Source: Shigella phage A2. Taken from it: DNA of 64,000 bases. The position numbers and the translations under genes were made by a program. The stretch is taken from sequence record OP197928. One strand, 5' to 3'. Below, one piece after another: positions 3,695-61,453 of the stretch (the first letter of the stretch is position 1; every line of letters starts with the position of its first letter). Under the pieces are notes generated by a model. That model made no database searches, was not told the origin of the DNA, and was given only the letters and a program-made list of their open reading frames with translations.

Positions 3695-4258
3695 TTATTT
3701 ACCTAGTTTAGTTATTATAGCTTCTGCGGCAGCTTTTAGCTTAGATGCGGTGTTAATACGATTTTTAATTTCAGTATACGCATCGCCAAGAACATCAAGG
3801 CTATCAGAATAAACACTTACACTATTGCGTTCGCTATTTGAAATAGAACCTTTAGTTTTACGTTCAAAATCGGTGTACACGTCTTGAAGATCACGGGCTG
3901 CCTTCTTTGCATCATCCAATGCATCAAGAGCTTTATTCAAAGCATTAACATATTTTTTAGTGTCGAACATATTCTTAGAAATTTTAACAGGTGCACGTTC
4001 AGGAGTAGCTAAGGCAGATTTAGGAACCTGAGCGCCAGATGCCAATTTCTTAGAAATTTTGAAAAATGCTTTATTGAAACTATTTTCTTGACTCATCGTA
4101 AAAGAACTATTATCAATGTTATACATTTCAATAGCTTTAGCTTTCCACTTAAGAAAATCGCCACGGTCTTTTGGGTCCAAGTGGAAGAATACTTTAGTAA
4201 GATCTGCTTCAGATGGTAATTTTGCTGCTTCGGTTAAAAATTCGGCGTAGGTTTTCAT
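3695..4258 (-). CDS. internal-protein-like head protein with capsid targeting sequence (IP family)
   Basis: 187 aa; N-terminus MKTYAEFLTE|A matches the T4 internal-protein capsid targeting sequence (MKTYQEFIAE, gp21 protease site after L/I-x-E). Confidence 0.7.
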   Translation of the reverse strand: MKTYAEFLTEAAKLPSEADLTKVFFHLDPKDRGDFLKWKAKAIEMYNIDNSSFTMSQENSFNKAFFKISKKLASGAQVPKSALATPERAPVKISKNMFDTKKYVNALNKALDALDDAKKAARDLQDVYTDFERKTKGSISNSERNSVSVYSDSLDVLGDAYTEIKNRINTASKLKAAAEAIITKLGK

Positions 4259-4339
4259 TTAAAATCCTTGAAATAATTTATTGGTTATTAATTATTTATC
4301 ACGTTGTTATATGTAACAGCATTCTCCGAGCGATTCAAA

Positions 4340-4369
4340 CTAAAAAGCCCCAACCTTTCTGTCGGGGCT
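4340..4369 (-). terminator. rho-independent terminator downstream of IP-like gene
   Basis: Minus RNA: AGCCCCGACAGAAAGGUUGGGGCU followed by UUUUUAG; the 20-mer ctaaaaagccccaacctttc recurs at 4896-4915. Confidence 0.7.
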
Positions 4370-4376
4370 AAGAATG

Positions 4377-4850
4377 TTATTTAATTTGCTTAGCAGACCA
4401 AATGCGGTCTTTGATAATTTTTTGGATGTCTTCAACATACTCAAGAGAGTGAACATGTGGGTTATCTTTGAAACTATAAGCACGAGCTAGCTTTTGGCCT
4501 TCAGTTTTGATTACTAAAAGCTCTTTAAGGATAGCTTCATATTTGGAGATAATTCCTTTAACAATATTTTTCTCTTGTGCGACTTTAGGATCTGCTTTAG
4601 GAGCAGGTTTACCCGAAGCCTTTGCAAAAGCAGCGCCAGTAGCAACTAAACTTTTCCAGGCCATACTAACTGCATTTCCCGTAAATCCTTCCGCTTTCAT
4701 GTCGCGTGCGAACTGGAATCGCGATTCATCAGAAGCATCTTTGTAAGAATATTTACCCGCTGCAATGGCTGCTTTTGCGACAGCTTGAATTTCGGTGCTA
4801 GATGCTTCATTTAACACCGCTTCATTTAAAAATTGAGTATATGATTTCAT
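4377..4850 (-). CDS. internal-protein-like head protein with capsid targeting sequence (IP family)
   Basis: 157 aa; N-terminus MKSYTQFLNE|A = CTS-like; A/K-rich body. Confidence 0.7.
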   Translation of the reverse strand: MKSYTQFLNEAVLNEASSTEIQAVAKAAIAAGKYSYKDASDESRFQFARDMKAEGFTGNAVSMAWKSLVATGAAFAKASGKPAPKADPKVAQEKNIVKGIISKYEAILKELLVIKTEGQKLARAYSFKDNPHVHSLEYVEDIQKIIKDRIWSAKQIK

Positions 4851-4887
4851 CTTATTTCCTGTTTTAATTTGTAGATTTAATATACTT

Positions 4888-4895
4888 ATTTATAC
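4888..4895 (-). promoter_or_regulatory. T4-type late promoter TATAAATA (minus strand) upstream of IP-like gene 4377..4850
   Basis: plus-strand tatttata = TATAAATA on minus, about 40 nt upstream of ATG at 4850. Confidence 0.5.
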
Positions 4896-4925
4896 TAAAA
4901 AGCCCCAACCTTTCGGCTGGGGCTA
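4896..4925 (-). terminator. rho-independent terminator closing the tRNA/stable-RNA transcription unit
   Basis: Minus RNA: AGCCCCAGCCGAAAGGUUGGGGCU + UUUUUAG; near-duplicate of terminator at 4340-4369. Confidence 0.65.
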
Positions 4926-4976
4926 AGCCTTGCGGCAACCTTGTCGGGGTTCCACCTGCTAAGGCAAGTGTTTGTA

Positions 4977-5068
4977 CGAAACGCCGGGATTCGAACCCGG
5001 TTATCAAGCAGTTGACGCTACTCAATATTTTTAAAAGGCCATATCTCGACCATATCCGAACGTTCCGT
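4977..5068 (-). ncRNA. tRNA-like element / stable small RNA (resembles T4 species-1/2 RNA; not a canonical tRNA)
   Basis: Minus strand has a perfect T-arm CCGGG-UUCGAAU-CCCGG (4987-5003 region) and a 7-bp acceptor-like pairing CGGAACG/CGUUUCG (5062-5068 with 4978-4984), but a 60-nt body with no recognisable anticodon arm and no CCA. Confidence 0.4.
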
Positions 5069-5235
5069 CAAAAACGCTACTCGGCTTACGGCAAAGATAT
5101 TTCCTCGAATCGATAATTCGGTGCGCCGTTTCTGCTGTGATATAAGGGGACATTAACAAATCATAAAGATTTATTAATGCCAGTCCTTAAACAGGGAACA
5201 TCAGTCCGACGACTTACCGGTAGCGACCCGGTTTC

Positions 5236-5586
5236 TTAATATTCTTTTAAAGCATCAATCTGTTCACGGCGTTTACGCCATAAATCAATTGCTTCATACG
5301 CAGATTCAGCATTTCGAATTAGCCGGCATTTATGTAAAGACTTATGATTTTGATATTGTGTAGATAATGGAATTGTATCTAAAAGGTCTTTACGATCAAA
5401 GTATTCGTAACCATCTAAACCAAATGAACGATTTTTGAGAAATTGCCAATGGCCAAATTCATTTTCAACATAAACATAATCTGCATGCTGATAAAGTAAA
5501 TTAATTACACGTTCAGAAATAACAGTATCATTATGATTAAAATAGAATGTTAAATCATGAACTACTAAATAAACATTACCTTTCAT
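5236..5586 (-). CDS. hypothetical protein embedded in the tRNA/stable-RNA operon
   Basis: 116-aa ORF between tRNA-Arg and the tRNA-like RNA; no recognisable motif (no GIY-YIG/HNH signature). Confidence 0.5.
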   Translation of the reverse strand: MKGNVYLVVHDLTFYFNHNDTVISERVINLLYQHADYVYVENEFGHWQFLKNRSFGLDGYEYFDRKDLLDTIPLSTQYQNHKSLHKCRLIRNAESAYEAIDLWRKRREQIDALKEY

Positions 5587-5602
5587 ATTTTCCTCACTTA
5601 AT

Positions 5603-5678
5603 TGGTCGAGGCAGTAGGGATCGAACCTACGACCTAGGACTTAGAAGGTCCTTGCTCTTCCTTCTGAGCTATGCCCCG
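5603..5678 (-). tRNA. tRNA-Arg (anticodon UCU)
   Basis: Hand-folded cloverleaf on minus strand: acceptor CGGGGCA/UGCCUCG, anticodon loop CUUCUAA, T-loop GGUUCGAUCC, encoded CCA. Confidence 0.85.
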
Positions 5679-5682
5679 TAAT

Positions 5683-5758
5683 TGGGGTGACCGATGGGAG
5701 TCGAACCCATGACTACGAGAATCACAATCTCGAGTTCTACCAACTGAACTACGGCCAC
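5683..5758 (-). tRNA. tRNA-His (anticodon GUG)
   Basis: Acceptor GUGGCCG/CGGUCAC, anticodon stem CGAGA/UCUCG, loop UUGUGAU, T-arm AUGGG-UUCGACU-CCCAU, discriminator C + CCA; no encoded G(-1). Confidence 0.75.
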
Positions 5759-5872
5759 ATTAATATCTACTCCAACAATCATGATGTCTTCACACGAAAT
5801 TAAGAGAAGAGTGATCAGTTCAACCCCTATAATCGCGTCAAGTAGATATTAATGTGACAGTTGTCACAAATT

Positions 5873-5947
5873 TGGCGGACGTGATAGGATTCGAACCTAT
5901 AACCAATCGCTTAACAGGCGATCGCTCTGCCATTGAGCTACACATCC
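5873..5947 (-). tRNA. tRNA-Asn (anticodon GUU)
   Basis: Acceptor GGAUGUG/CACGUCC, anticodon stem AUCGC/GCGAU, loop CUGUUAA, T-loop UUCGAAU, CCA encoded. Confidence 0.8.
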
Positions 5948-5951
5948 AAAT

Positions 5952-6038
5952 TGGTGGGGAGTGGTGGAGTCGAACCACCCGAGTCGCAATGACAATGGAT
6001 TTACAGTCCACACCGCTACCTCTACGGGATAACTCCCC
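5952..6038 (-). tRNA. tRNA-Tyr (anticodon GUA), class II with long variable arm
   Basis: 87 nt; acceptor GGGGAGU/ACUCCCC perfect, anticodon loop CUGUAAA, T-arm GGUGG-UUCGACU-CCACC, CCA encoded. Confidence 0.8.
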
Positions 6039-6051
6039 TTAATTCTTAATT

Positions 6052-6126
6052 TGGTGGCCCTGGGTGGAATTGAACCACCATCTGGCGATTATGAGTCGCT
6101 TGCTTGAACCTTCCAGCTACAGGGCC
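6052..6126 (-). tRNA. tRNA with CAU anticodon (Ile2/lysidine type as in T4, or elongator Met)
   Basis: Acceptor GGCCCUG/CAGGGCC, anticodon loop CUCAUAA, T-arm GGUGG-UUCAAUU-CCACC, CCA encoded. Confidence 0.8.
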
Positions 6127-28790: not shown

Positions 28791-31931
<3,141 letters not shown>

Positions 31932-31959
31932 TATTAAAGCATATTAAAGAGGATTAAAA

Positions 31960-33939
31960 ATGACTTTATTATCTCCGGGCATTGAGCTCAAAGAAACTAC
32001 GGTTCAAAGCACCGTGGTTAATAACTCTACTGGTACAGCAGCTTTGGCCGGTAAATTCCAGTGGGGTCCTGCTTTTCAAATTAAACAGGTTACAAATGAA
32101 GTAGATTTAGTTAATACTTTTGGTCAACCTACAGCTGAAACTGCTGACTATTTTATGTCTGCAATGAATTTCTTACAATACGGAAATGATTTGCGAGTTG
32201 TGCGTGCTGTCGATAGAGATACCGCTAAAAACTCATCTCCGATTGCCGGTAATATTGAATACACTATTTCTACCCCAGGTAGTAACTACGCGGTTGGAGA
32301 TAAAATCACGGTTAAGTATGTTTCAGAAGACATTGAAACAGAATGTAAAGTTACCGAAGTAGATGCTGATGGAAAAATTAAGAAAATTAATATTCCTACT
32401 GCAAAAATTATCGCTAAAGCGAAAGAAGTCGGTGAATATCCAACATTAGGTTCTAACTGGACCGCGGAAATTTCTTCGTCTTCCTCTGGTTTAGCTGCAG
32501 TAATAACTCTTGGAAAAATTATTACTGATTCTGGTATTTTATTAGCTGAAATTGAAAATGCCGAAGCTGCTATGACAGCTGTTGACTTTCAAGCAAATCT
32601 CGAAAAATATGGAATTCCAGGAGTAGTAGCTCTTTATCCAGGCGAGTTGGGCGATAAAATCGAAATTGAAATCGTATCTAAAGCTGACTACGCAAAAGGG
32701 GCTTCTGCATTACTTCCAATTTATCCAGGTGGCGGAACACGCGCATCTACTGCCAAAGCAGTGTTTGGATATGGACCACAAACTGATTCACAATACGCTA
32801 TTATAGTTCGTCGCAATGATGCTATTGTTCAAAGCGTTGTTCTTTCAACGAAGCGTGGTGAAAAAGATATTTACGATAGTAACATCTATATTGATGACTT
32901 TTTCGCAAAAGGTGGTTCAGAATATATTTTCGCAACTGCACAAAACTGGCCAGAAGGCTTCTCTGGAATTTTAACTCTGTCTGGTGGATTATCGTCAAAT
33001 GCTGAAGTAACAGCAGGAGATTTGATGGAAGCCTGGGACTTCTTTGCTGACCGTGAATCTGTTGACGTTCAGTTGTTTATTGCGGGTTCTTGCGCCGGCG
33101 AATCTTTAGAAACAGCATCTACTGTCCAAAAACACGTCGTTTCAATTGGTGATGCTCGCCAAGATTGCTTAGTACTGTGCTCACCACCGCGTGAAACTGT
33201 AGTTGGAATTCCTGTAACTCGTGCTGTTGATAACTTAGTCAATTGGAGAACTGCAGCAGGTTCATACACTGATAACAACTTTAATATCAGTTCAACCTAT
33301 GCAGCAATCGATGGTAACTACAAGTATCAGTATGACAAATATAATGATGTGAATCGTTGGGTTCCATTAGCAGCTGATATTGCTGGTTTATGCGCGAGAA
33401 CAGATAACGTTTCTCAGACTTGGATGTCTCCAGCTGGTTATAATCGTGGTCAGATTCTTAACGTTATTAAACTTGCTATTGAAACTCGCCAGGCGCAGCG
33501 CGACCGTTTATACCAAGAAGCTATCAACCCAGTAACTGGTACAGGTGGTGATGGTTACGTATTGTATGGTGATAAAACAGCTACTTCTGTTCCTTCTCCA
33601 TTTGATCGTATTAACGTTCGTCGTCTGTTTAATATGTTAAAAACGAATATCGGACGTAGTTCAAAATATCGTTTGTTCGAATTAAACAACGCGTTTACTC
33701 GTTCATCGTTCCGCACAGAAACTTCCCAGTACTTACAGGGAATTAAAGCTCTCGGTGGAATTTATGAATATCGTGTAGTTTGCGATACAACAAATAACAC
33801 TCCGTCAGTAATTGATAGAAATGAGTTTGTTGCAACATTCTACATTCAACCGGCTAGAAGCATTAACTACATTACCTTAAACTTCGTAGCAACTGCTACT
33901 GGTGCAGATTTCGATGAGTTAACTGGTCTTGCAGGTTAA
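31960..33939 (+). CDS. 18: tail sheath protein gp18
   Basis: 659 aa (T4 gp18 length). Confidence 0.97.
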   Translation: MTLLSPGIELKETTVQSTVVNNSTGTAALAGKFQWGPAFQIKQVTNEVDLVNTFGQPTAETADYFMSAMNFLQYGNDLRVVRAVDRDTAKNSSPIAGNIEYTISTPGSNYAVGDKITVKYVSEDIETECKVTEVDADGKIKKINIPTAKIIAKAKEVGEYPTLGSNWTAEISSSSSGLAAVITLGKIITDSGILLAEIENAEAAMTAVDFQANLEKYGIPGVVALYPGELGDKIEIEIVSKADYAKGASALLPIYPGGGTRASTAKAVFGYGPQTDSQYAIIVRRNDAIVQSVVLSTKRGEKDIYDSNIYIDDFFAKGGSEYIFATAQNWPEGFSGILTLSGGLSSNAEVTAGDLMEAWDFFADRESVDVQLFIAGSCAGESLETASTVQKHVVSIGDARQDCLVLCSPPRETVVGIPVTRAVDNLVNWRTAAGSYTDNNFNISSTYAAIDGNYKYQYDKYNDVNRWVPLAADIAGLCARTDNVSQTWMSPAGYNRGQILNVIKLAIETRQAQRDRLYQEAINPVTGTGGDGYVLYGDKTATSVPSPFDRINVRRLFNMLKTNIGRSSKYRLFELNNAFTRSSFRTETSQYLQGIKALGGIYEYRVVCDTTNNTPSVIDRNEFVATFYIQPARSINYITLNFVATATGADFDELTGLAG

Positions 33940-54253: not shown

Positions 54254-55218
54254 TGTATTCTTTAGAGGAATTTAATAATCAAGCAATAAACGCAGATTTC
54301 CAACGTAATAATATGTTTAGCTGCGTTTTTGCGACAACTCCATCAACTAAAAGCTCTTCGTTGATAAGTTCAATTAGCAACTTTTCTTATAATAACTTGG
54401 GTCTAAATTCAGATTGGTTAGGATTGACTCAAGGCGATATTAATCAGGGAATTACCACGCTAATTACCGCTGGCACACAAAAACTGATAAGAAAATCAGG
54501 GGTTAGTAAATATCTTATTGGTGCCATGAGTCAACGTACAGTTCAAAGTTTATTGGGCTCATTTACAGTTGGTACATATTTAATTGACTTCTTTAACATG
54601 GCATATAACTCATCTGGATTGATGATATATTCTGTAAAAATGCCAGAGAATAGATTATCCTATGAAACTGACTGGAACTATAATTCTCCTAATATTCGTA
54701 TAACTGGGAGAGAATTAGACCCTTTGGTTATTTCATTTAGAATGGATTCAGAAGCATGTAACTATCGTGCAATGCAAGACTGGGTTAACGCTGTTCAAGA
54801 CCCAGTAACTGGATTGCGTGCTTTGCCACAAGATGTCGAGGCAGATATTCAGGTTAATCTTCATGCTCGTAATGGATTACCTCATACTGCGGTGATGTTC
54901 ACTGGATGCATTCCAGTGTCAGTGAGTGCTCCTGAGTTATCATATGATGGAGATAACCAAATAACTACATTTGATGTTACTTTTGCGTATAGAGTCATGC
55001 AGGCTGGGTCGGTTGATAGACAAGCTGCGCTTGAGTGGCTTGAATCTGCTGCTATAAATGGCATTCAAAGCGTTCTCGGAAATAGTGGAGGTGTTACTGG
55101 ATTATCTAATTCGCTTTCACGACTTAGTAGATTAGGAGGAACTGCTGGAAGCATTTCAAACATTAATACTATGACGGGAATTGTCAACTCGCAAAGTAAA
55201 ATATTAGGAGCAATATAA
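54253..55218 (+). CDS. 54: baseplate tail tube initiator gp54
   Basis: 321 aa; ATGT overlap with gene 48. Confidence 0.93.
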   Translation: MYSLEEFNNQAINADFQRNNMFSCVFATTPSTKSSSLISSISNFSYNNLGLNSDWLGLTQGDINQGITTLITAGTQKLIRKSGVSKYLIGAMSQRTVQSLLGSFTVGTYLIDFFNMAYNSSGLMIYSVKMPENRLSYETDWNYNSPNIRITGRELDPLVISFRMDSEACNYRAMQDWVNAVQDPVTGLRALPQDVEADIQVNLHARNGLPHTAVMFTGCIPVSVSAPELSYDGDNQITTFDVTFAYRVMQAGSVDRQAALEWLESAAINGIQSVLGNSGGVTGLSNSLSRLSRLGGTAGSISNINTMTGIVNSQSKILGAI

Positions 55219-55220
55219 CA

Positions 55221-55250
55221 ATGGGGACCGAAAGGTCCCCATATTTTTAT
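55221..55250. terminator. bidirectional GAAA/UUUC tetraloop terminator between gene 54 (+) and the alt region (-)
   Basis: atggggacc-gaaa-ggtccccat followed by atttttattt. Confidence 0.65.
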
Positions 55251-55537
55251 TTACGGAATGAAATAAAAGCAGCAACTGAAGCAACTAAACTGTCTTCAAT
55301 ATAAACTTCAATTTTTACCGGAGCTTCTGACTCAAATTTACCTGTTACTACACCTTGGAAAATGCTTTCAGTCTGCTCTGGCTTTGAAAAATTTTCAGAA
55401 GGAAAAATTCCGAACTTTTTATCTGTTCCAAAAATTTTGATAAATTCATCATAAACTGCTTCATTAAAAGCATTATCAGCAGGAATAACGCCTTCAACTA
55501 CAAGTTCTTGACCTAAAAAGCGCAAAGAAGATTTCAT
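55247..55537 (-). CDS. hypothetical protein (alt.-3 position)
   Basis: 96-aa ORF. Confidence 0.55.
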   Translation of the reverse strand: MKSSLRFLGQELVVEGVIPADNAFNEAVYDEFIKIFGTDKKFGIFPSENFSKPEQTESIFQGVVTGKFESEAPVKIEVYIEDSLVASVAAFISFRK

Positions 55538-55597
55538 TTTGTGTTCCTCATGTTATGTCAGTAAAATTACTATAACACAACACGAGGGACTTGTAAA

Positions 55598-57655
55598 CTA
55601 CATCTTGAACTTTTTAGACATTCCGTTGATGTTAACCAAAGAAGCCAAGATTTGAGAAACTTCGTTTTTCTCTTCTTTTGATTCTTCTACAAGGAATTGA
55701 TTAAACCCAGCCATTGGACGAACTTCACCAGTTTCCATCAGATGATCGCCATCATATACCGATTCTTCTAATTGTTCAGAAGGAGGAACGATTGTGCCTT
55801 CGATTAGATACTTGTTATAAGCAGTTTCTTTCATCATGTACGTGCTTACTTTATTAATCTTCAACAAAATTCCACGCGGTAAAATAACTTCAGCTTCTGA
55901 TGGAAATCCTGATAAATGACCTGGAACGATAACTTTAATTCGCTCAGCTCCTTTTATTACCATACCTACGCTAGTTTCAGCATCTTCATTAGCATATGCA
56001 GAATGACTGCCCATATGCATTAAATCTTCAGCATCAACAGAACCTTCTCCTTCACCAGAAAATACTGCGCCGGAATCATCTAGAGCCATATAGTTTTTAC
56101 CATGCTCACCGAAGATATTTGGTTTAAGCGATGTTGATACGAAGTTCTTGAAATAAAACATTTTATTTTCAATATTATGACGTAAAGTTTTAAAGGTAAC
56201 TTCTTGTCCACGATAAAGCGTAGTTCCTGGAGGAAGAACTGAACCTTTGGCAAAGGCAGAATCCATTGTCTCGATGTGTTTAATAGCTCGTTCCATGTAT
56301 TCTTCACGGGTAGAATCTGGTTTACCCAAGAGGAACGAGTTCATTTCAACATATGAATCTGCACAATAATCTTCAATTACATCAGACTCAGCCTGAGTCA
56401 GTCCTTTTGGAGTTACTTCGGTGCTTGCGTATTCATATGCCTGAGCAGCAGATTCATTAATCAATTTATAAATGCCATTCATGACAAATTGAATAATAGC
56501 TACCTTTTCGTCTGGCGTGGCTTTAGAACCTTTAACTAAATCATTGATAATTTTCTTAATAACATCAAAGCTATTAGAAATATTAATGTCAGCGAGATCG
56601 CTCAAAATTTTATCGGTTTTATAATCAAAGAATTCTTTATTCTTTAAATATTCTTGAGAACCTTGATATGTTATATCGCTCTGCAGCTTGATAGATGGAT
56701 CACGTAAACGTGCATGGGCCAATGCAATATGATTTCGGAAGCTTTCTAGTTCATAATCATTAGATTTAAAACGAGAAGCACTCCTCATACCACCGATAGC
56801 TCCTTTGCCGAAGTTTGAACCAATCTGAATAACGCCAGAGTTCATTGGTCCTTCTGCTTTATATACCGGAACTTTAGATTCAAACTCTTGATATTTCTTA
56901 GCGGCGAAGCTATCACCCTGAAGTGAAGCATCGACAGTAGAATATTGAGCTTGTGCTGCTAATCGACGACTAATTTTAGTTTTCTGAATAACAGCTTGAT
57001 CCGTGCGCTTATCATTTTCTAGAGCAATAGAAGCGGCAACAGCAACAGCTTTAGGAACAGCATTACCTGTTTTAACGTCTACATAAACATCACCAACCTT
57101 TGATTCAACTTTTGTGAATAACTCAGTTGAAATAGGAGGTACACCTGGAATGTCTTCTAAATTAGCAGTTTTACGATAAACCATAATATATGCATACTTT
57201 TTATCATAGTCCCAGATTTCCTTTAAAAGAACATATCGACCTGCTCCTTTAGTACGTACTAAACGGTCAGCAATAACTTGCATTTGACGAGCAGCGCCAT
57301 TTGTTTTACTTTTTAGTACGCGGAATAGGCATGCGTCAATTTTATACTGTTTCATTGTTTGAAGAGCAGTATCAAAAACCGCATTAATGACACCAATTGG
57401 ATTTCCACCCAAGTTTTTAAGTTTAACTAATGATAGTTTCTCATTAACACCTATCATTACGATATGCATCATTTTATCGCCTGGCTTAACGTTTTTATTT
57501 GTATCACCGCCAGAGGTGTATGTACAAAATCTAAATCCAGGAAGCACACTTTCTTCACCGGCTTGAATAGCAAAAATTTGAGGTATTTTATGCTTAGGAT
57601 TTAAGTTAACAACCGGCGCCGAAGCGCCGTCAAATAATTCTGTAATAAGTTCCAT
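55598..57655 (-). CDS. Alt-like ADP-ribosyltransferase (paralog 1)
   Basis: 685 aa; N-terminal about 230 aa co-linear with the adjacent paralog (MELITELFD...KIDAC...YDKKYAYI...); C-terminal R-S-E ART signature: YRGQ, NFVSTSL, EAEVILPRG. Confidence 0.85.
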   Translation of the reverse strand: MELITELFDGASAPVVNLNPKHKIPQIFAIQAGEESVLPGFRFCTYTSGGDTNKNVKPGDKMMHIVMIGVNEKLSLVKLKNLGGNPIGVINAVFDTALQTMKQYKIDACLFRVLKSKTNGAARQMQVIADRLVRTKGAGRYVLLKEIWDYDKKYAYIMVYRKTANLEDIPGVPPISTELFTKVESKVGDVYVDVKTGNAVPKAVAVAASIALENDKRTDQAVIQKTKISRRLAAQAQYSTVDASLQGDSFAAKKYQEFESKVPVYKAEGPMNSGVIQIGSNFGKGAIGGMRSASRFKSNDYELESFRNHIALAHARLRDPSIKLQSDITYQGSQEYLKNKEFFDYKTDKILSDLADINISNSFDVIKKIINDLVKGSKATPDEKVAIIQFVMNGIYKLINESAAQAYEYASTEVTPKGLTQAESDVIEDYCADSYVEMNSFLLGKPDSTREEYMERAIKHIETMDSAFAKGSVLPPGTTLYRGQEVTFKTLRHNIENKMFYFKNFVSTSLKPNIFGEHGKNYMALDDSGAVFSGEGEGSVDAEDLMHMGSHSAYANEDAETSVGMVIKGAERIKVIVPGHLSGFPSEAEVILPRGILLKINKVSTYMMKETAYNKYLIEGTIVPPSEQLEESVYDGDHLMETGEVRPMAGFNQFLVEESKEEKNEVSQILASLVNINGMSKKFKM

Positions 57656-57658
57656 GAT

Positions 57659-59755
57659 TTATCCTTGAACGAACTTGTAAGGCATGTTTGCAATATCTAT
57701 GCAAGACGCAATAATTCCAAGAGATGATTCTACTTTTTGTTTAACATTTGATGAAACAAATGATGCAAAGTCAACTCTGTCTTCTATTTCAATATCACCT
57801 GTCATTGTAACTACTTCACCAGTTTCCATTAGACGGTCACCGTCATAAATTACTGATTCGGTGAGTTCTTCCGTAGTCATAACTTCAGCTTGAATGAGTT
57901 TTGTATTATTAGATGTTGTTCCGTCATTATTAGAAGCATCAGTTATTTTATTAACTTTGACCATCAATCCTCGTGGTAGAATAACTTCAGCTTCTGTTGC
58001 TATTCCGAGACTTCCTGGATATACAACATTAACTTTATGAGCTCCATCAATTGCCCATCCTATTTGAACTTTAACGTATTCTGGATTTTCTTTATACGCT
58101 CTTATTTCGTTTGGATTAATAGTTATTCCTTCTTCATTTTTATCAACTGTTAATTCATTACGAGCTTCTGGTTCTAAAAGACCAATGCCAGCATGTGTAA
58201 TTCCAAAACGTCCAAAAATGATAGGAGTTAAAGAAGTAGATACAAAATTTCTGAAATAGAACACTTTATTTTTAACTAGTGCTTCGTATATAGGAGCAGT
58301 CATACTTTGAGCACGATAAACTGTAATGCCTTCTGGTATACGGTCACCATTTTCAAAAGCTGAATCTAAGTTATTTATAGCAGATTCAATTTCTTTTTCA
58401 CTCATTACATCATATCGTTCTGGATTGTAGCGTCCTAAAAGAAGATTATTGATGTCAGTATATCCTGAACCGCAATACTCTCTAATGCCGCGCTTTTGTG
58501 ATGGAGTATATTTAGAACCATCACGGGCAATAGTAATATCAATCATTGGACCTGCACCAATTCCAGAAAAACTATAAATCATTCGTTTGAGGAATTTAGT
58601 TTTTGCTGCGTTCCAGGAATTTTTAGTTATTTCTTCCCAGACTTCATCTGGCTGCCCTTTACGAGTTTTATTATGTTTATCAAGCCAAGTATCTTTATAT
58701 TCTTCAAAGAATTTATTAATAGCTGCTGCATACTTCTCTAAACATTTTATTGAAGTAGTCGGTTCATTTTTAATCGCATTAAGAATTACATCTTTAATTT
58801 TTTCAGAAACTTCATTAACCTCACTTTTTGAAAAGAATTTATAGTCATAATGAAGTTCATCTGCGGTTCCTTCGGCAATAATTTTTGCTGCCTTAGTTTT
58901 AGAAGCTAATGAATTAATTCCAAGTTTCATTTCTTCTGCTTCGGGAATTAAAGGAGCGGTAGCAGGTTTATTGAAATTAGCTGCGGTAGATTCATATTTC
59001 TGGAATAATTCACTTTCAAATCTAGAAGATTCCAATGACTGACTTTGTGCAATTGCTCTACGGGAAATTTTAACTTTAACGATTACAGCTTGGTCAGAAC
59101 GTTTATCATTTTCTTGTGCAATAGATGCTGCAATTGCCTCATTTTTAGTTACTTGAGCTCCAGTATCTTTATTGATATAAACATCGCCGACTTTCGATTC
59201 AACTTTAGTAAAGAGCTCGGTGCTAATTTCCGGAACTCCTGGAATGTCTTCTAGTGATACATTTTTGCGATGTATAAGAATATATGCATACTTTTTATCA
59301 TAATCCCAGAGTTCCTTAAGAAGGACGTATCTGCCACCTGAACGACTGCGGATAAGTCTATCAGCAATAACTTGAATTTGTCGAGCTTGACCAGCAGTTT
59401 TAGACTTAAGAATACGAAGCATACAGGCATCAATTTTATACTGACGCATCGTCTGCATCGCAACAGTAAAAACTGAATTGATGTAATTAATTGGGCTTGG
59501 ACCGAGACCTTTTAATTTAGCAATTGAACCTTTAGCAGTTAATGTAAAAGGAACAATATGCATCATTTTATCGCCCATCTTTAAATCGCGATTAGTATCA
59601 CCTCCAGATGTATAGGTACATAAACGAAAGCCTGGTTGTTCAATTGCGTCATCAACATGAACTGAAAAAATTTGTGGTATTTTCTTCTTTGGATTTAAGT
59701 TTGTAATCGGAAGAGTAGTATCTTCGTCAAATAATTCTGTAATGAGTTCCATCAT
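57659..59755 (-). CDS. alt: Alt ADP-ribosyltransferase (paralog 2, adjacent to gene 30 side)
   Basis: 698 aa; shared N-terminal module; ART motifs YRAQ, NFVSTSL, EAEVILPRG; late promoter upstream; assignment of alt to this copy rather than paralog 1 is by position only. Confidence 0.8.
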   Translation of the reverse strand: MMELITELFDEDTTLPITNLNPKKKIPQIFSVHVDDAIEQPGFRLCTYTSGGDTNRDLKMGDKMMHIVPFTLTAKGSIAKLKGLGPSPINYINSVFTVAMQTMRQYKIDACMLRILKSKTAGQARQIQVIADRLIRSRSGGRYVLLKELWDYDKKYAYILIHRKNVSLEDIPGVPEISTELFTKVESKVGDVYINKDTGAQVTKNEAIAASIAQENDKRSDQAVIVKVKISRRAIAQSQSLESSRFESELFQKYESTAANFNKPATAPLIPEAEEMKLGINSLASKTKAAKIIAEGTADELHYDYKFFSKSEVNEVSEKIKDVILNAIKNEPTTSIKCLEKYAAAINKFFEEYKDTWLDKHNKTRKGQPDEVWEEITKNSWNAAKTKFLKRMIYSFSGIGAGPMIDITIARDGSKYTPSQKRGIREYCGSGYTDINNLLLGRYNPERYDVMSEKEIESAINNLDSAFENGDRIPEGITVYRAQSMTAPIYEALVKNKVFYFRNFVSTSLTPIIFGRFGITHAGIGLLEPEARNELTVDKNEEGITINPNEIRAYKENPEYVKVQIGWAIDGAHKVNVVYPGSLGIATEAEVILPRGLMVKVNKITDASNNDGTTSNNTKLIQAEVMTTEELTESVIYDGDRLMETGEVVTMTGDIEIEDRVDFASFVSSNVKQKVESSLGIIASCIDIANMPYKFVQG

Positions 59756-59775
59756 ATCCTCTCTAGTGTTTATTC

Positions 59776-59783
59776 TATTTATA
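59776..59783 (-). promoter_or_regulatory. late promoter TATAAATA (minus strand) for alt
   Basis: plus-strand tatttata 21-28 nt upstream of alt ATG (59755). Confidence 0.5.
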
Positions 59784-59788
59784 AAATT

Positions 59789-59806
59789 AAAGGCCCGAAG
59801 GCCTTT
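59789..59806 (-). terminator. UUCG-tetraloop hairpin between gene 30 operon and alt
   Basis: aaaggcc-cgaa-ggccttt (UUCG on minus RNA) with flanking A/T tracts. Confidence 0.55.
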
Positions 59807-59993
59807 AATAATCTATTGGTAAGAGAGTACGATATATTTCAAACTTTGGACCTTTTTCATAGGCATCAAATGTTTCTGTGAATTTATTATAAGCATATGC
59901 ATCTATAAATTCAATCATAATTTGTGATACAGAAGTAGAAACATCTCCACCTTCTTTTTGAGCAACGACAATTGTTTCTAAGTAAGCTTTCAT
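59805..59993 (-). CDS. hypothetical small protein
   Basis: 62-aa ORF overlapping the gene 30 stop by 4 nt. Confidence 0.5.
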   Translation of the reverse strand: MKAYLETIVVAQKEGGDVSTSVSQIMIEFIDAYAYNKFTETFDAYEKGPKFEIYRTLLPIDY

Positions 59994-61453
59994 AGACCAG
60001 TTACCTCATGAAAATCACCAAATACATCCTCGAATGTATTAGCTTTAGTTTTATCTTCACGTAAACGAATCGCAATTGGAAGAAATAATTTTACGTAATC
60101 AGTGCGGCCATCAGATTTTAACCAACCATTGCATTCGCACTCTAGAATTTTTCCAATATAATAATTTTGGTTTTCCATAATGCGAGTACGGTCAAGTTCA
60201 TGTGATTTTACGCCGGCTTTATCTTTTAAGCCTGAACCAGCATTTACTTTAATTTTTCCACACTCTGATTCAAGAATAAATCCACCTGCTTTAGTAGGGT
60301 CTTTACGGTGAGGATAAATTCCTACAATTTTTAAATCAACATCAATTACTTCTTTAAATTTATAGAGATTTTTTGAACGAGCATTTTCCCACAATCCATC
60401 GGTATTTTTGAGAATAATACCTTCAAGACCTTGGTCAATATACTTTTTATAAATTACCTTAGCTTCATCTAGGTTATTTACTACCTGGTTTTCAATTAAA
60501 ATTACTTTATCATATCCTGATGTCATTTGTTCTAGTTTAGAAAAACGTACATCATATTTTAAACGAAACGCCGGAAGACCGTATATTTCTACCAACGGGA
60601 CATAATCCCAGACCTGAAACTTCATGCATTCGGCTTCTTTTTCGGAAATGGTTCCTTTTAAGGATTTATTGGCGATTCCATTAGAAGCAGTACGAGATTC
60701 CGCTACTTCGGCGAATTCTTTAGCTTTACTAATTTCAGGATAAGCATCAAAAAGAAAATCTAGGCCTTCTGGTTCCTTTTTAACTTGCTCATGGTATACC
60801 AATTCGCCATCAATTAACACACCTTCTGGATGAATCTGGCGGGCTTCAGCAGTCATTTTGATTAATTCTTCCTTAAGAAGATCTAATCCTAGATATTCAT
60901 TACCAGCTCGTGATAAAAGACGAACATCATCTAATTCATCGCCTCGGACTTCAGCAAAACACCGAGCTCCATCTGCTTTTAACTGTGCAAAGGCTGGAAA
61001 TTTGATATTCTTATTAATGCCTTTTTCATCATAAGAACTTGCCAGCATTTGAGGTTGTTCAGGAATTAAACCTGGCCAAACTTTGTTTGCAATAGATACT
61101 GAAGCACCGCATTCAAGGTCTCGCATCATCACTCGACGCAAAACTTCAACATCATCCTTTTTACCATCGGTGATATATCCAGTCAATTCCTCAATTGCAG
61201 CATTTCCGGTCAATTTCCGAGTAGCTAACGTGAATTCAATGAAGTCAAGCATATCGGTAATGGTCAGCATTCCAAAACTCTGGGTAGCAATACCAGGTTT
61301 AGGCCATTTCTTGATATAATACTGTAACCCACGAGAATAAGTCAGACGATATACCCGTTTAAGCAATTCATTATCTTTATTCTTTTCAAGAATTGCTTGC
61401 TTCTGCTTAGTTGATCCAATAGATGCTATTTCATTCAGAATTTTAAGAATCAT
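59990..61453 (-). CDS. 30: ATP-dependent DNA ligase gp30
   Basis: 487 aa; adenylation motif KADGAR (motif I) and other nucleotidyltransferase motifs. Confidence 0.95.
   Translation of the reverse strand: MILKILNEIASIGSTKQKQAILEKNKDNELLKRVYRLTYSRGLQYYIKKWPKPGIATQSFGMLTITDMLDFIEFTLATRKLTGNAAIEELTGYITDGKKDDVEVLRRVMMRDLECGASVSIANKVWPGLIPEQPQMLASSYDEKGINKNIKFPAFAQLKADGARCFAEVRGDELDDVRLLSRAGNEYLGLDLLKEELIKMTAEARQIHPEGVLIDGELVYHEQVKKEPEGLDFLFDAYPEISKAKEFAEVAESRTASNGIANKSLKGTISEKEAECMKFQVWDYVPLVEIYGLPAFRLKYDVRFSKLEQMTSGYDKVILIENQVVNNLDEAKVIYKKYIDQGLEGIILKNTDGLWENARSKNLYKFKEVIDVDLKIVGIYPHRKDPTKAGGFILESECGKIKVNAGSGLKDKAGVKSHELDRTRIMENQNYYIGKILECECNGWLKSDGRTDYVKLFLPIAIRLREDKTKANTFEDVFGDFHEVTGL

Follow-up and report, generated by a model that had tools for sequence, protein, structure and literature searches.

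The ADP-ribosyltransferase Alt is a textbook phage enzyme, injected with the DNA and reprogramming the host ahead of phage gene expression, and its characterised targets in the T4 system are Arg265 of the RNA polymerase alpha subunit and MazF. Here we describe a locus of Shigella phage A2 (sequence record OP197928) in which two tandem genes, which we call alt and alt2, encode diverged ADP-ribosyltransferases (ARTs) of this type; the window referred to below is the whole 64,000-nucleotide (nt) stretch that was analysed, a segment of a Tequatrovirus genome. We think it probable (roughly 0.6, judged from the sequence) that the two are active arginine ARTs packaged in the head, and that their substrate ranges differ in part.

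The closest described system is T4 Alt itself (gpAlt, NP_049811, 682 amino acids (aa)), whose gene occupies the same slot between gene 30/alt.1 and alt.-3/gene 54 and which shares with the proteins described here a late promoter, gp21 sites and an R-S-ExE active site. Mass spectrometry placed two cuts by gp21, the prohead protease, in T4 Alt, one after ITE-6 and one after LTE-619, the second taking off 63 C-terminal residues (PMC5694885; PMC9026906). Like Alt, the internal proteins of T-even phages (IPI, IPII and IPIII) join a conserved part, which serves targeting and processing, to an injected payload that varies greatly, and are cleaved by gp21 (PMC3012670; PMC9026906), but they are small, are present at ~360 copies per head and carry a 10-20-residue capsid-targeting sequence, whereas Alt is a large enzyme at ~40 copies per head (PMC5694885; PMC9026906) and, unlike the internal proteins, has a 6-residue N-terminal propeptide together with a C-terminal propeptide. 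T4 ModA and ModB belong to the same R-S-E ART clade and come from the same phage group, but unlike the Alt type they are expressed early and are not packaged (PMC5512222); at ~200 aa (603 and 624 nt including the stop codon) they are, judged by length, too short to hold the N-terminal module, central domain and propeptides. ModB is reported to RNAylate proteins as well (bioRxiv 10.1101/2021.06.04.446905; PMC10468400), and nothing in the present analysis points to such an activity for Alt or Alt2. More distantly, the toxins CDTa, iota Ia, VIP2, C3bot, Vis and Certhrax have the ART fold and the catalytic motifs in common with the Alt proteins, although the clostridial binary-toxin and C3-like ARTs are only ~15-20% identical to them and use other delivery systems. 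Unlike these toxin ARTs, the Alt proteins have additional residues inserted between S-T-S and E-x-E, and their matches to PF03496 take up 205 or 250 residues for ~180-194 profile positions.

Duplication at this locus is likewise on record. Nolan et al. (2006) described alt.-1 and alt.-2 as paralogous to alt and reported a full-length alt duplication in phage 44RR (PMC1524935), a 2026 paper on phage 6phi13 likewise has the paralogy and put forward the same reading of it (PMC13600099), and the T4 GenBank annotation treats alt.-1/alt.-2 as having arisen by an old duplication of the first part of alt. In many genomes RefSeq gives both genes the label 'Alt-like RNA polymerase ADP-ribosyltransferase'. 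The tandem arrangement is thus real but already annotated and described, and is not new.

A sequence-only reading of the window had placed two open reading frames (ORFs) at 55598-57655 (685 aa) and 57659-59755 (698 aa), and these coordinates and lengths proved exact. The 698-aa ORF begins MMELITE. Since Shine-Dalgarno spacing is better for its second ATG (59752), and a start there agrees with those of T4, T2 and T6 Alt, the upstream product is likely to be 697 aa long. The two genes and the predicted layout of their products, all on the minus strand, are as follows.

57659..59752, minus: alt, T2/T6-type allele, 697 aa (698 aa in the mechanical ORF, which has one extra Met and reaches 59755)
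alt, aa 1-6: N-terminal propeptide, MELITE, cut after the final E
alt, aa 7-238 (59039-59734): N-module
alt, aa 239-410 (58523-59038): helical, variable central domain
alt, aa 411-632 (57857-58522): ART domain
alt, aa 633-697: C-terminal propeptide, following LTE
55598..57655, minus: alt2, 685 aa, called 'alt.-2' in the annotations of RB14, RB32, RB51 and T6
alt2, aa 1-6: N-terminal propeptide
alt2, aa 7-238 (56942-57637): N-module
alt2, aa 239-410 (56426-56941): helical central domain
alt2, aa 411-631 (55763-56425): ART domain
alt2, aa 632-685: C-terminal propeptide, following LEE

By BLASTP, Alt and Alt2 are 41% identical overall (E = 2e-161). This figure hides an uneven distribution, with ~67% identity over residues 1-238 and ~20% from there on outside islands of identity at YR(G/A)Q, NFVSTSL, EAEVILPRG and a C-terminal E-S-x-x-YDGDxLMETGE block, so that the earlier description of tandem Alt-family genes with a common N-terminal module and later divergence was borne out. 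The shared YDGDxLMETGE motif had not been part of that description. In both proteins the N-module is basic (isoelectric point 9.5-9.7) and the ART domain acidic (isoelectric point ~4.9). Within the DNA encoding the shared N-module, the number of synonymous substitutions per synonymous site (dS) between alt and alt2 is ~1.4, nucleotide identity is 67% and the longest common exact word is 24 nt; from these codon and nucleotide comparisons, the N-terminal similarity is attributable to purifying selection acting on an old duplication. A recent gene conversion, considered as another cause of the shared N-terminus, is excluded by the same three values.

Both proteins have the sequence hallmarks of ARTs. 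Against a gathering cut-off of 23.4 bits, PF03496 (ADPrib_exo_Tox) scored 72.9 bits with Alt2 and 129.2 bits with the upstream Alt, and PHROG 802, 'Alt-like RNA polymerase ADP-ribosyltransferase', matched along the whole of each protein. Alt2 has YRGQ at 481, STS at 507 and EAE at 587, giving the residues R482, S507-T-S509 and E587-A-E589. The upstream Alt has YRAQ at 480, STS at 506 and EAE at 588 when the 698-aa form is numbered; its catalytic residues are R480, S505-T-S507 and E587-A-E589 in the 697-aa form. An alignment of 19 diverse Alt variants showed R482, S507, S509, E587 and E589 (Alt2 numbering) to be invariant, and HMMER alignments laid the YR and E-x-E motifs over the catalytic Arg and (E/Q)-x-E of CDTa, iota toxin Ia, a C3-like ART and BECa. 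The R-S-E triad that the sequence-only reading had ascribed to both copies is therefore present in each as Arg, S-T-S and E-x-E, and the loss of a catalytic Arg or Glu from one copy, named in advance as an outcome that would speak against the proposal, was not seen: the site is intact in both. Among R-S-E ARTs, E-x-E rather than Q-x-E is the signature of arginine specificity.

A sequence search of the PDB with Alt2 alone returned no match, and the family profile did give matches to the toxins. We also obtained an AlphaFold2 model of Alt2 (mean predicted local distance difference test score (pLDDT) 76.9, predicted template modelling score 0.71), which consisted of an alpha/beta N-module (residues ~15-200), an all-helical central region (~200-470), an ART domain and a poorly ordered C-terminal tail. 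The best matches to this model in a Foldseek search of the PDB were Vis toxin, Certhrax, C3, CDTa and VIP2 (E-values 3e-7 to 1e-4), with target template modelling scores of 0.6-0.65 for the single-domain toxins; these scores refer to the Alt2 model only, and in that predicted model the catalytic region has the ART fold. Taken with the conserved residues, this makes it most likely that Alt and Alt2 are mono-ADP-ribosyltransferases of the T4 Alt type and specific for arginine. Lying between the S-T-S and E-x-E motifs is a hypervariable acidic insertion that differs between Alt and Alt2.

The signals for gp21 processing are found in both proteins. ITE-6 is kept in each, and an LxE motif ~55-65 aa from the C-terminus stands at the homologous position, as LTE-632 in Alt and LEE-631 in Alt2; the P1 glutamates E6 and E631 were invariant across the 19 Alt variants. 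Cleavage at these sites would yield predicted mature products of 70.1 kDa (Alt) and 69.1 kDa (Alt2), and we consider that Alt2 is probably packaged and processed like Alt. The sequence-only reading had taken the N-terminal ~230 aa for the head-packaging and processing domain. This holds in part: since the gp21 sites lie at both ends, the ~230-aa N-module would stay in the mature protein, and a role for it in packaging or ejection is plausible, as it is basic and other multidomain phage proteins contain a fold like it.

Expression signals agree with synthesis late in infection. Upstream of alt we found the following site, with a Shine-Dalgarno sequence between it and the gene.

59776..59783, minus: T4-type late promoter TATAAATA, a perfect match, 21 nt upstream of the first alt ATG

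The window holds 23 matches to TATAAATA against 10.0 +/- 2.9 expected, a number that none of 100 shuffles reached. The alt2 ATG lies 3 nt past the alt stop codon and has AGGA 6 nt upstream, and a terminator scan found no terminator-like site on the coding (minus) strand between the two genes. Because of this late promoter, the AGGA with its 3-nt gap and the lack of an intervening coding-strand terminator, alt and alt2 look like one late operon behind a single T4-type late promoter; Alt2, close-coupled in translation to a gene with TATAAATA upstream and placed between gene 30 and gene 54, thus has both the late expression signals and the genomic position of an Alt protein. A second exact TATAAATA was seen within the alt coding region (58372-58379, minus strand), ~720 nt upstream of the alt2 start, which could be a late promoter for a separate alt2 transcript or a chance match in AT-rich DNA.

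Comparison with the classical T-even phages showed that T2 and T6 each have a 697-aa alt and a 685-aa alt2 that are 98-99% identical to the window copies. The upstream Alt is 98.7% identical to T6 Alt, 98.1% identical to T2 Alt and 72% identical to T4 Alt, the last figure being that of a mosaic. Against the upstream copy, T4 Alt shows 99.6% amino acid identity in the N-module (dS 0.15) and 96.8% in the C-terminal propeptide (dS 0.19), but identity drops to 31% for aa 239-410 and 62% for aa 411-580, where dS exceeds 1.1. On these values the upstream alt is a mosaic, in which an anciently diverged central cassette sits within recently shared flanks. T4 Alt and Alt2 are 42% identical overall, and neither window protein has the close identity to T4 Alt in the central and catalytic region that would make it the same allele. 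Given this divergent segment, the T4 Alt target data are not simply transferable to Alt or Alt2.

T4 itself retains a trace of the second gene, as alt.-1/alt.-2 (NP_049810, NP_049809) are a remnant of alt2 with ~90% identity to its first ~117 codons. In a DNA comparison with the window, an internal deletion of 1.69 kb has removed positions 55618-57307 from T4, where a frameshift is present as well; T4 is therefore without a second Alt-type ART and is a natural alt2 knock-out. We noted that LR597660 ('Escherichia phage T4_ev151', our L002) has at 4004-6091 a T2/T6-type alt of 695 aa alongside the T4-type alt2 remnant, and is therefore recombinant at the alt locus relative to the T4 reference.

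Knowledge of Alt comes almost entirely from T4, a phage that deleted the second gene and carries a first allele with a different central and catalytic part, whereas T2, T6 and ~400 sequenced relatives have an intact second Alt-type enzyme, probably injected and ~69 kDa after processing. The targets of Alt2 could uncover a new stage of host takeover or of counter-defence, and Alt2 could explain differences among T-even phages against defence systems. It is also experimentally tractable, the gene being present in the classical phages T2 and T6.

For the pair we infer packaging, ejection, enzyme activity and a difference in target, and we propose that they would act as follows. Alt and Alt2 would be made late and built into the prohead core, where gp21 would trim both ends (after ITE-6, and after the LxE ~55-65 aa from the C-terminus) to leave mature proteins of ~69-70 kDa. 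These would be ejected together with the DNA and, inside the newly infected cell, would use NAD+ to ADP-ribosylate host proteins ahead of any phage gene expression. The common basic N-module and the C-terminal propeptide would serve as the delivery and processing parts. Since the helical central domain and the ART surface, especially the hypervariable acidic insertion, differ between the two, Alt and Alt2 would probably modify overlapping but non-identical sets of host proteins. The earlier sequence-only reading is supported as far as sequence reaches, and its suggestion that the second enzyme has a different target is one that we infer.

Several observations weigh against this proposal. In the Alt2 model the hypervariable loop, residues 517-554, has pLDDT below 50, and no structural argument on substrate binding can therefore be drawn from it. 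Other short (L/I)xE motifs occur several times in each protein; as the motif is short and repeated, retention of the gp21 motifs in Alt and Alt2 is suggestive of processing and not proof. Our literature search found no virion proteomics, enzyme assay, mutant or other genetic study of Alt2. Finally, either paralogue can be lost in nature, as T4 deleted most of alt2, and the Yersinia phage PST and some metagenomic contigs lost the alt effector; neither gene is therefore essential.

This dispensability bears on the main rival to partly different substrates, namely that the two genes are redundant duplicates whose products are both packaged and act on one common set of targets, RNA polymerase alpha together with the usual Alt substrates, so that the second copy would only add dose or act as a back-up. 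A single effector evidently suffices in nature, where T4 keeps alt only and PST the alt2 effector only, and T4 Alt has been found non-essential (PMC9026906). Set against this, the paralogues are only ~20% identical outside the motifs, with dS saturated, and yet each is under strong purifying selection; alt and alt2 occur together in at least 354 records, whereas simple redundancy rarely keeps two copies so diverged; and one to three diverged copies in tandem are seen repeatedly across Tevenvirinae. We regard redundancy of this kind as unlikely, though it is the strongest competitor to the proposal of different substrate ranges.

It is more improbable that Alt2 is made late and not injected, acting in the producing cell or only as a structural component of the head core. 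The literature search gave no direct evidence that Alt2 is incorporated into the virion, and Alt has also been described as a head core protein (PMC11404850). Alt2 keeps, however, the ITE-6 propeptide, the N-module and the C-terminal LxE and YDGD propeptide just as in the packaged and ejected Alt, and a purely structural role would not need the strict conservation of its catalytic site. That Alt2 is an inactive or decaying copy is very improbable and close to refuted by the sequence, since the deleted or frameshifted second copies of T4, of two contigs with the same remnant (L012 and L013) and of L016 contrast with a window ORF that is intact, has all catalytic residues, shows a ratio of nonsynonymous to synonymous substitution rates (dN/dS) of 0.04-0.06 and is found in ~401 records at 95% identity or more.

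The dN/dS values just given, which are those of the Alt2 effector part (aa 239-685) against four orthologues (dS 0.05-0.22), are accompanied by a value of 0.13 for the whole of alt2 against a homologue of 74% identity encoded on a metagenomic contig, where two genes likewise lie in tandem. A tblastn search with the effector part gave 401 phage records at 95% identity or more, including T2 and T6, and almost nothing between 60 and 95%; at least 80% of the two-gene stretch was covered in 354 records. By these codon measures alt2 is a live gene under strong purifying selection, and active, partly differing enzymes remain our preferred account of the pair. One hit was out of place: in Staphylococcus phage SAJK-IND (MG010123.1, 32 kb) the last ~290 nt of the record (31880-32170; hits H90 and H119) encode the Alt2 C-terminus with 99% identity, which almost certainly means that the public record is contaminated or chimerically assembled.

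Recombination does take place between the conserved N-modules, and natural rearrangements of the locus are on record. Yersinia phage PST (NC_027404; L028 2784-4844) has a single alt gene in which the first ~300 nt are alt-type and the rest alt2-type. A similar single fusion gene, with its crossover near nt 540, is present in the Logan contig SRR24155011_2765 (L003 5001-7055), and two more protein clusters have other alt::alt2 crossover points; in the metagenomic contigs the fusion could conceivably be an assembly artefact. From their junctions, the PST and L003 fusions are read as natural products of unequal recombination in which the upstream effector part was lost. The PST junction was found in PST only among 50,697 phage records, and such fusions are therefore rare events. 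Across 24 related viral contigs the alt loci had one, two or three tandem full-length copies, as well as decayed second copies. One contig (L008 3674-9934, IMGVR_UViG_2974497520_000001) contains three tandem full-length Alt-like genes, and in L016 (9121-11243) the second copy is split by a frameshift into ORFs of 392 aa and 315 aa.

With its conserved ends, variable middle and variable copy number, the alt locus resembles, by analogy, the T-even internal-protein loci (PMC3012670). This leads to a broader suggestion that we hold as tentative and somewhat doubtful, in which the locus would be a recombination-driven cassette system for injected effectors: the flanks, a conserved basic N-module and a conserved C-terminal propeptide, would deliver and process, while homologous recombination through them would swap, duplicate (one to three copies), fuse or delete the central and ART cassette. 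Alt2 would then be a distinct warhead whose host target is another protein, possibly not RNA polymerase but a component of a defence or a toxin, and the N-module would be a general adaptor if its fold is joined to other enzymes.

Searches with the N-module gave the following. Precomputed Pfam matches to PF26846 (Tevenvirinae_ADPRT) are present on Alt2 and Alt homologues and mark the N-terminal module, and a Pfam search at E-values up to 10 with the N-module and both central domains returned nothing meaningful. Among 1.84 billion representative proteins, an N-module profile found 74 clusters only. The full-length Alt family profile matched 55 of the 72 new representatives through the ART domain, and most of the others were short fragments. 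In two proteins, P0183 (541 aa) and P0182 (1142 aa), the Alt profile match was confined to the N-terminal part and the C-terminal regions had no ART or Alt profile match, although the P0182 sequence, on visual inspection, may retain a degenerate ART. Fold matches to the N-module in BFVD included phage proteins annotated with Zeta-toxin, ParB/sulfiredoxin or deaminase domains. The Alt N-module may be a general adaptor for head-loaded effectors.

The surroundings of the two genes are those of the T-even alt locus. Positions 55200-60000 of the window were matched by 541 phage records and are 98.6% identical to Shigella phage KRT47 and 98.4% identical to Shfl2. On the minus strand the order runs from the DNA ligase gene 30 through alt.1, the 698-aa ORF, the 685-aa ORF and alt.-3 to the convergent gene 54, in agreement with Shfl2, T4, T6 and T2. 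The neighbouring genes and terminator-like elements are listed here.

59990-61453, minus: DNA ligase, gene 30
59805-59993, minus: alt.1, a 62-aa ORF between the ligase gene and alt, with a match to Pfam PF24647 'Phage blade protein' (Phage_blade), E = 7.5e-29
59789..59806, minus: GC-rich hairpin AAAGGCC-TTCG-GGCCTTT followed by AATTTT, overlapping the alt.1 stop codon (59805-59807)
55247-55537, minus: alt.-3, a 96-aa ORF, DUF5498, PHROG 1739
55221..55242, both strands: bidirectional hairpin resembling a terminator, between gene 54 and alt.-3, which converge

The hairpin at 59789..59806, which was read directly from the sequence and did not figure in the consensus terminator scan, is likely to be a terminator insulating the alt operon from upstream early transcription. 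That scan gave the hairpin at 55221..55242 as the first coding-strand terminator-like site downstream of the alt-alt2-alt.-3 block. We also observed that alt.-3 has a sigma-70-like promoter of its own, TTTACA-17-TATAGT with TG, at 55597-55569. T4 mutants with a C-terminal extension of Alt.-3 have been reported to escape the CmdTAC defence, degradation of the CmdA antitoxin being blocked (PMC11618068).

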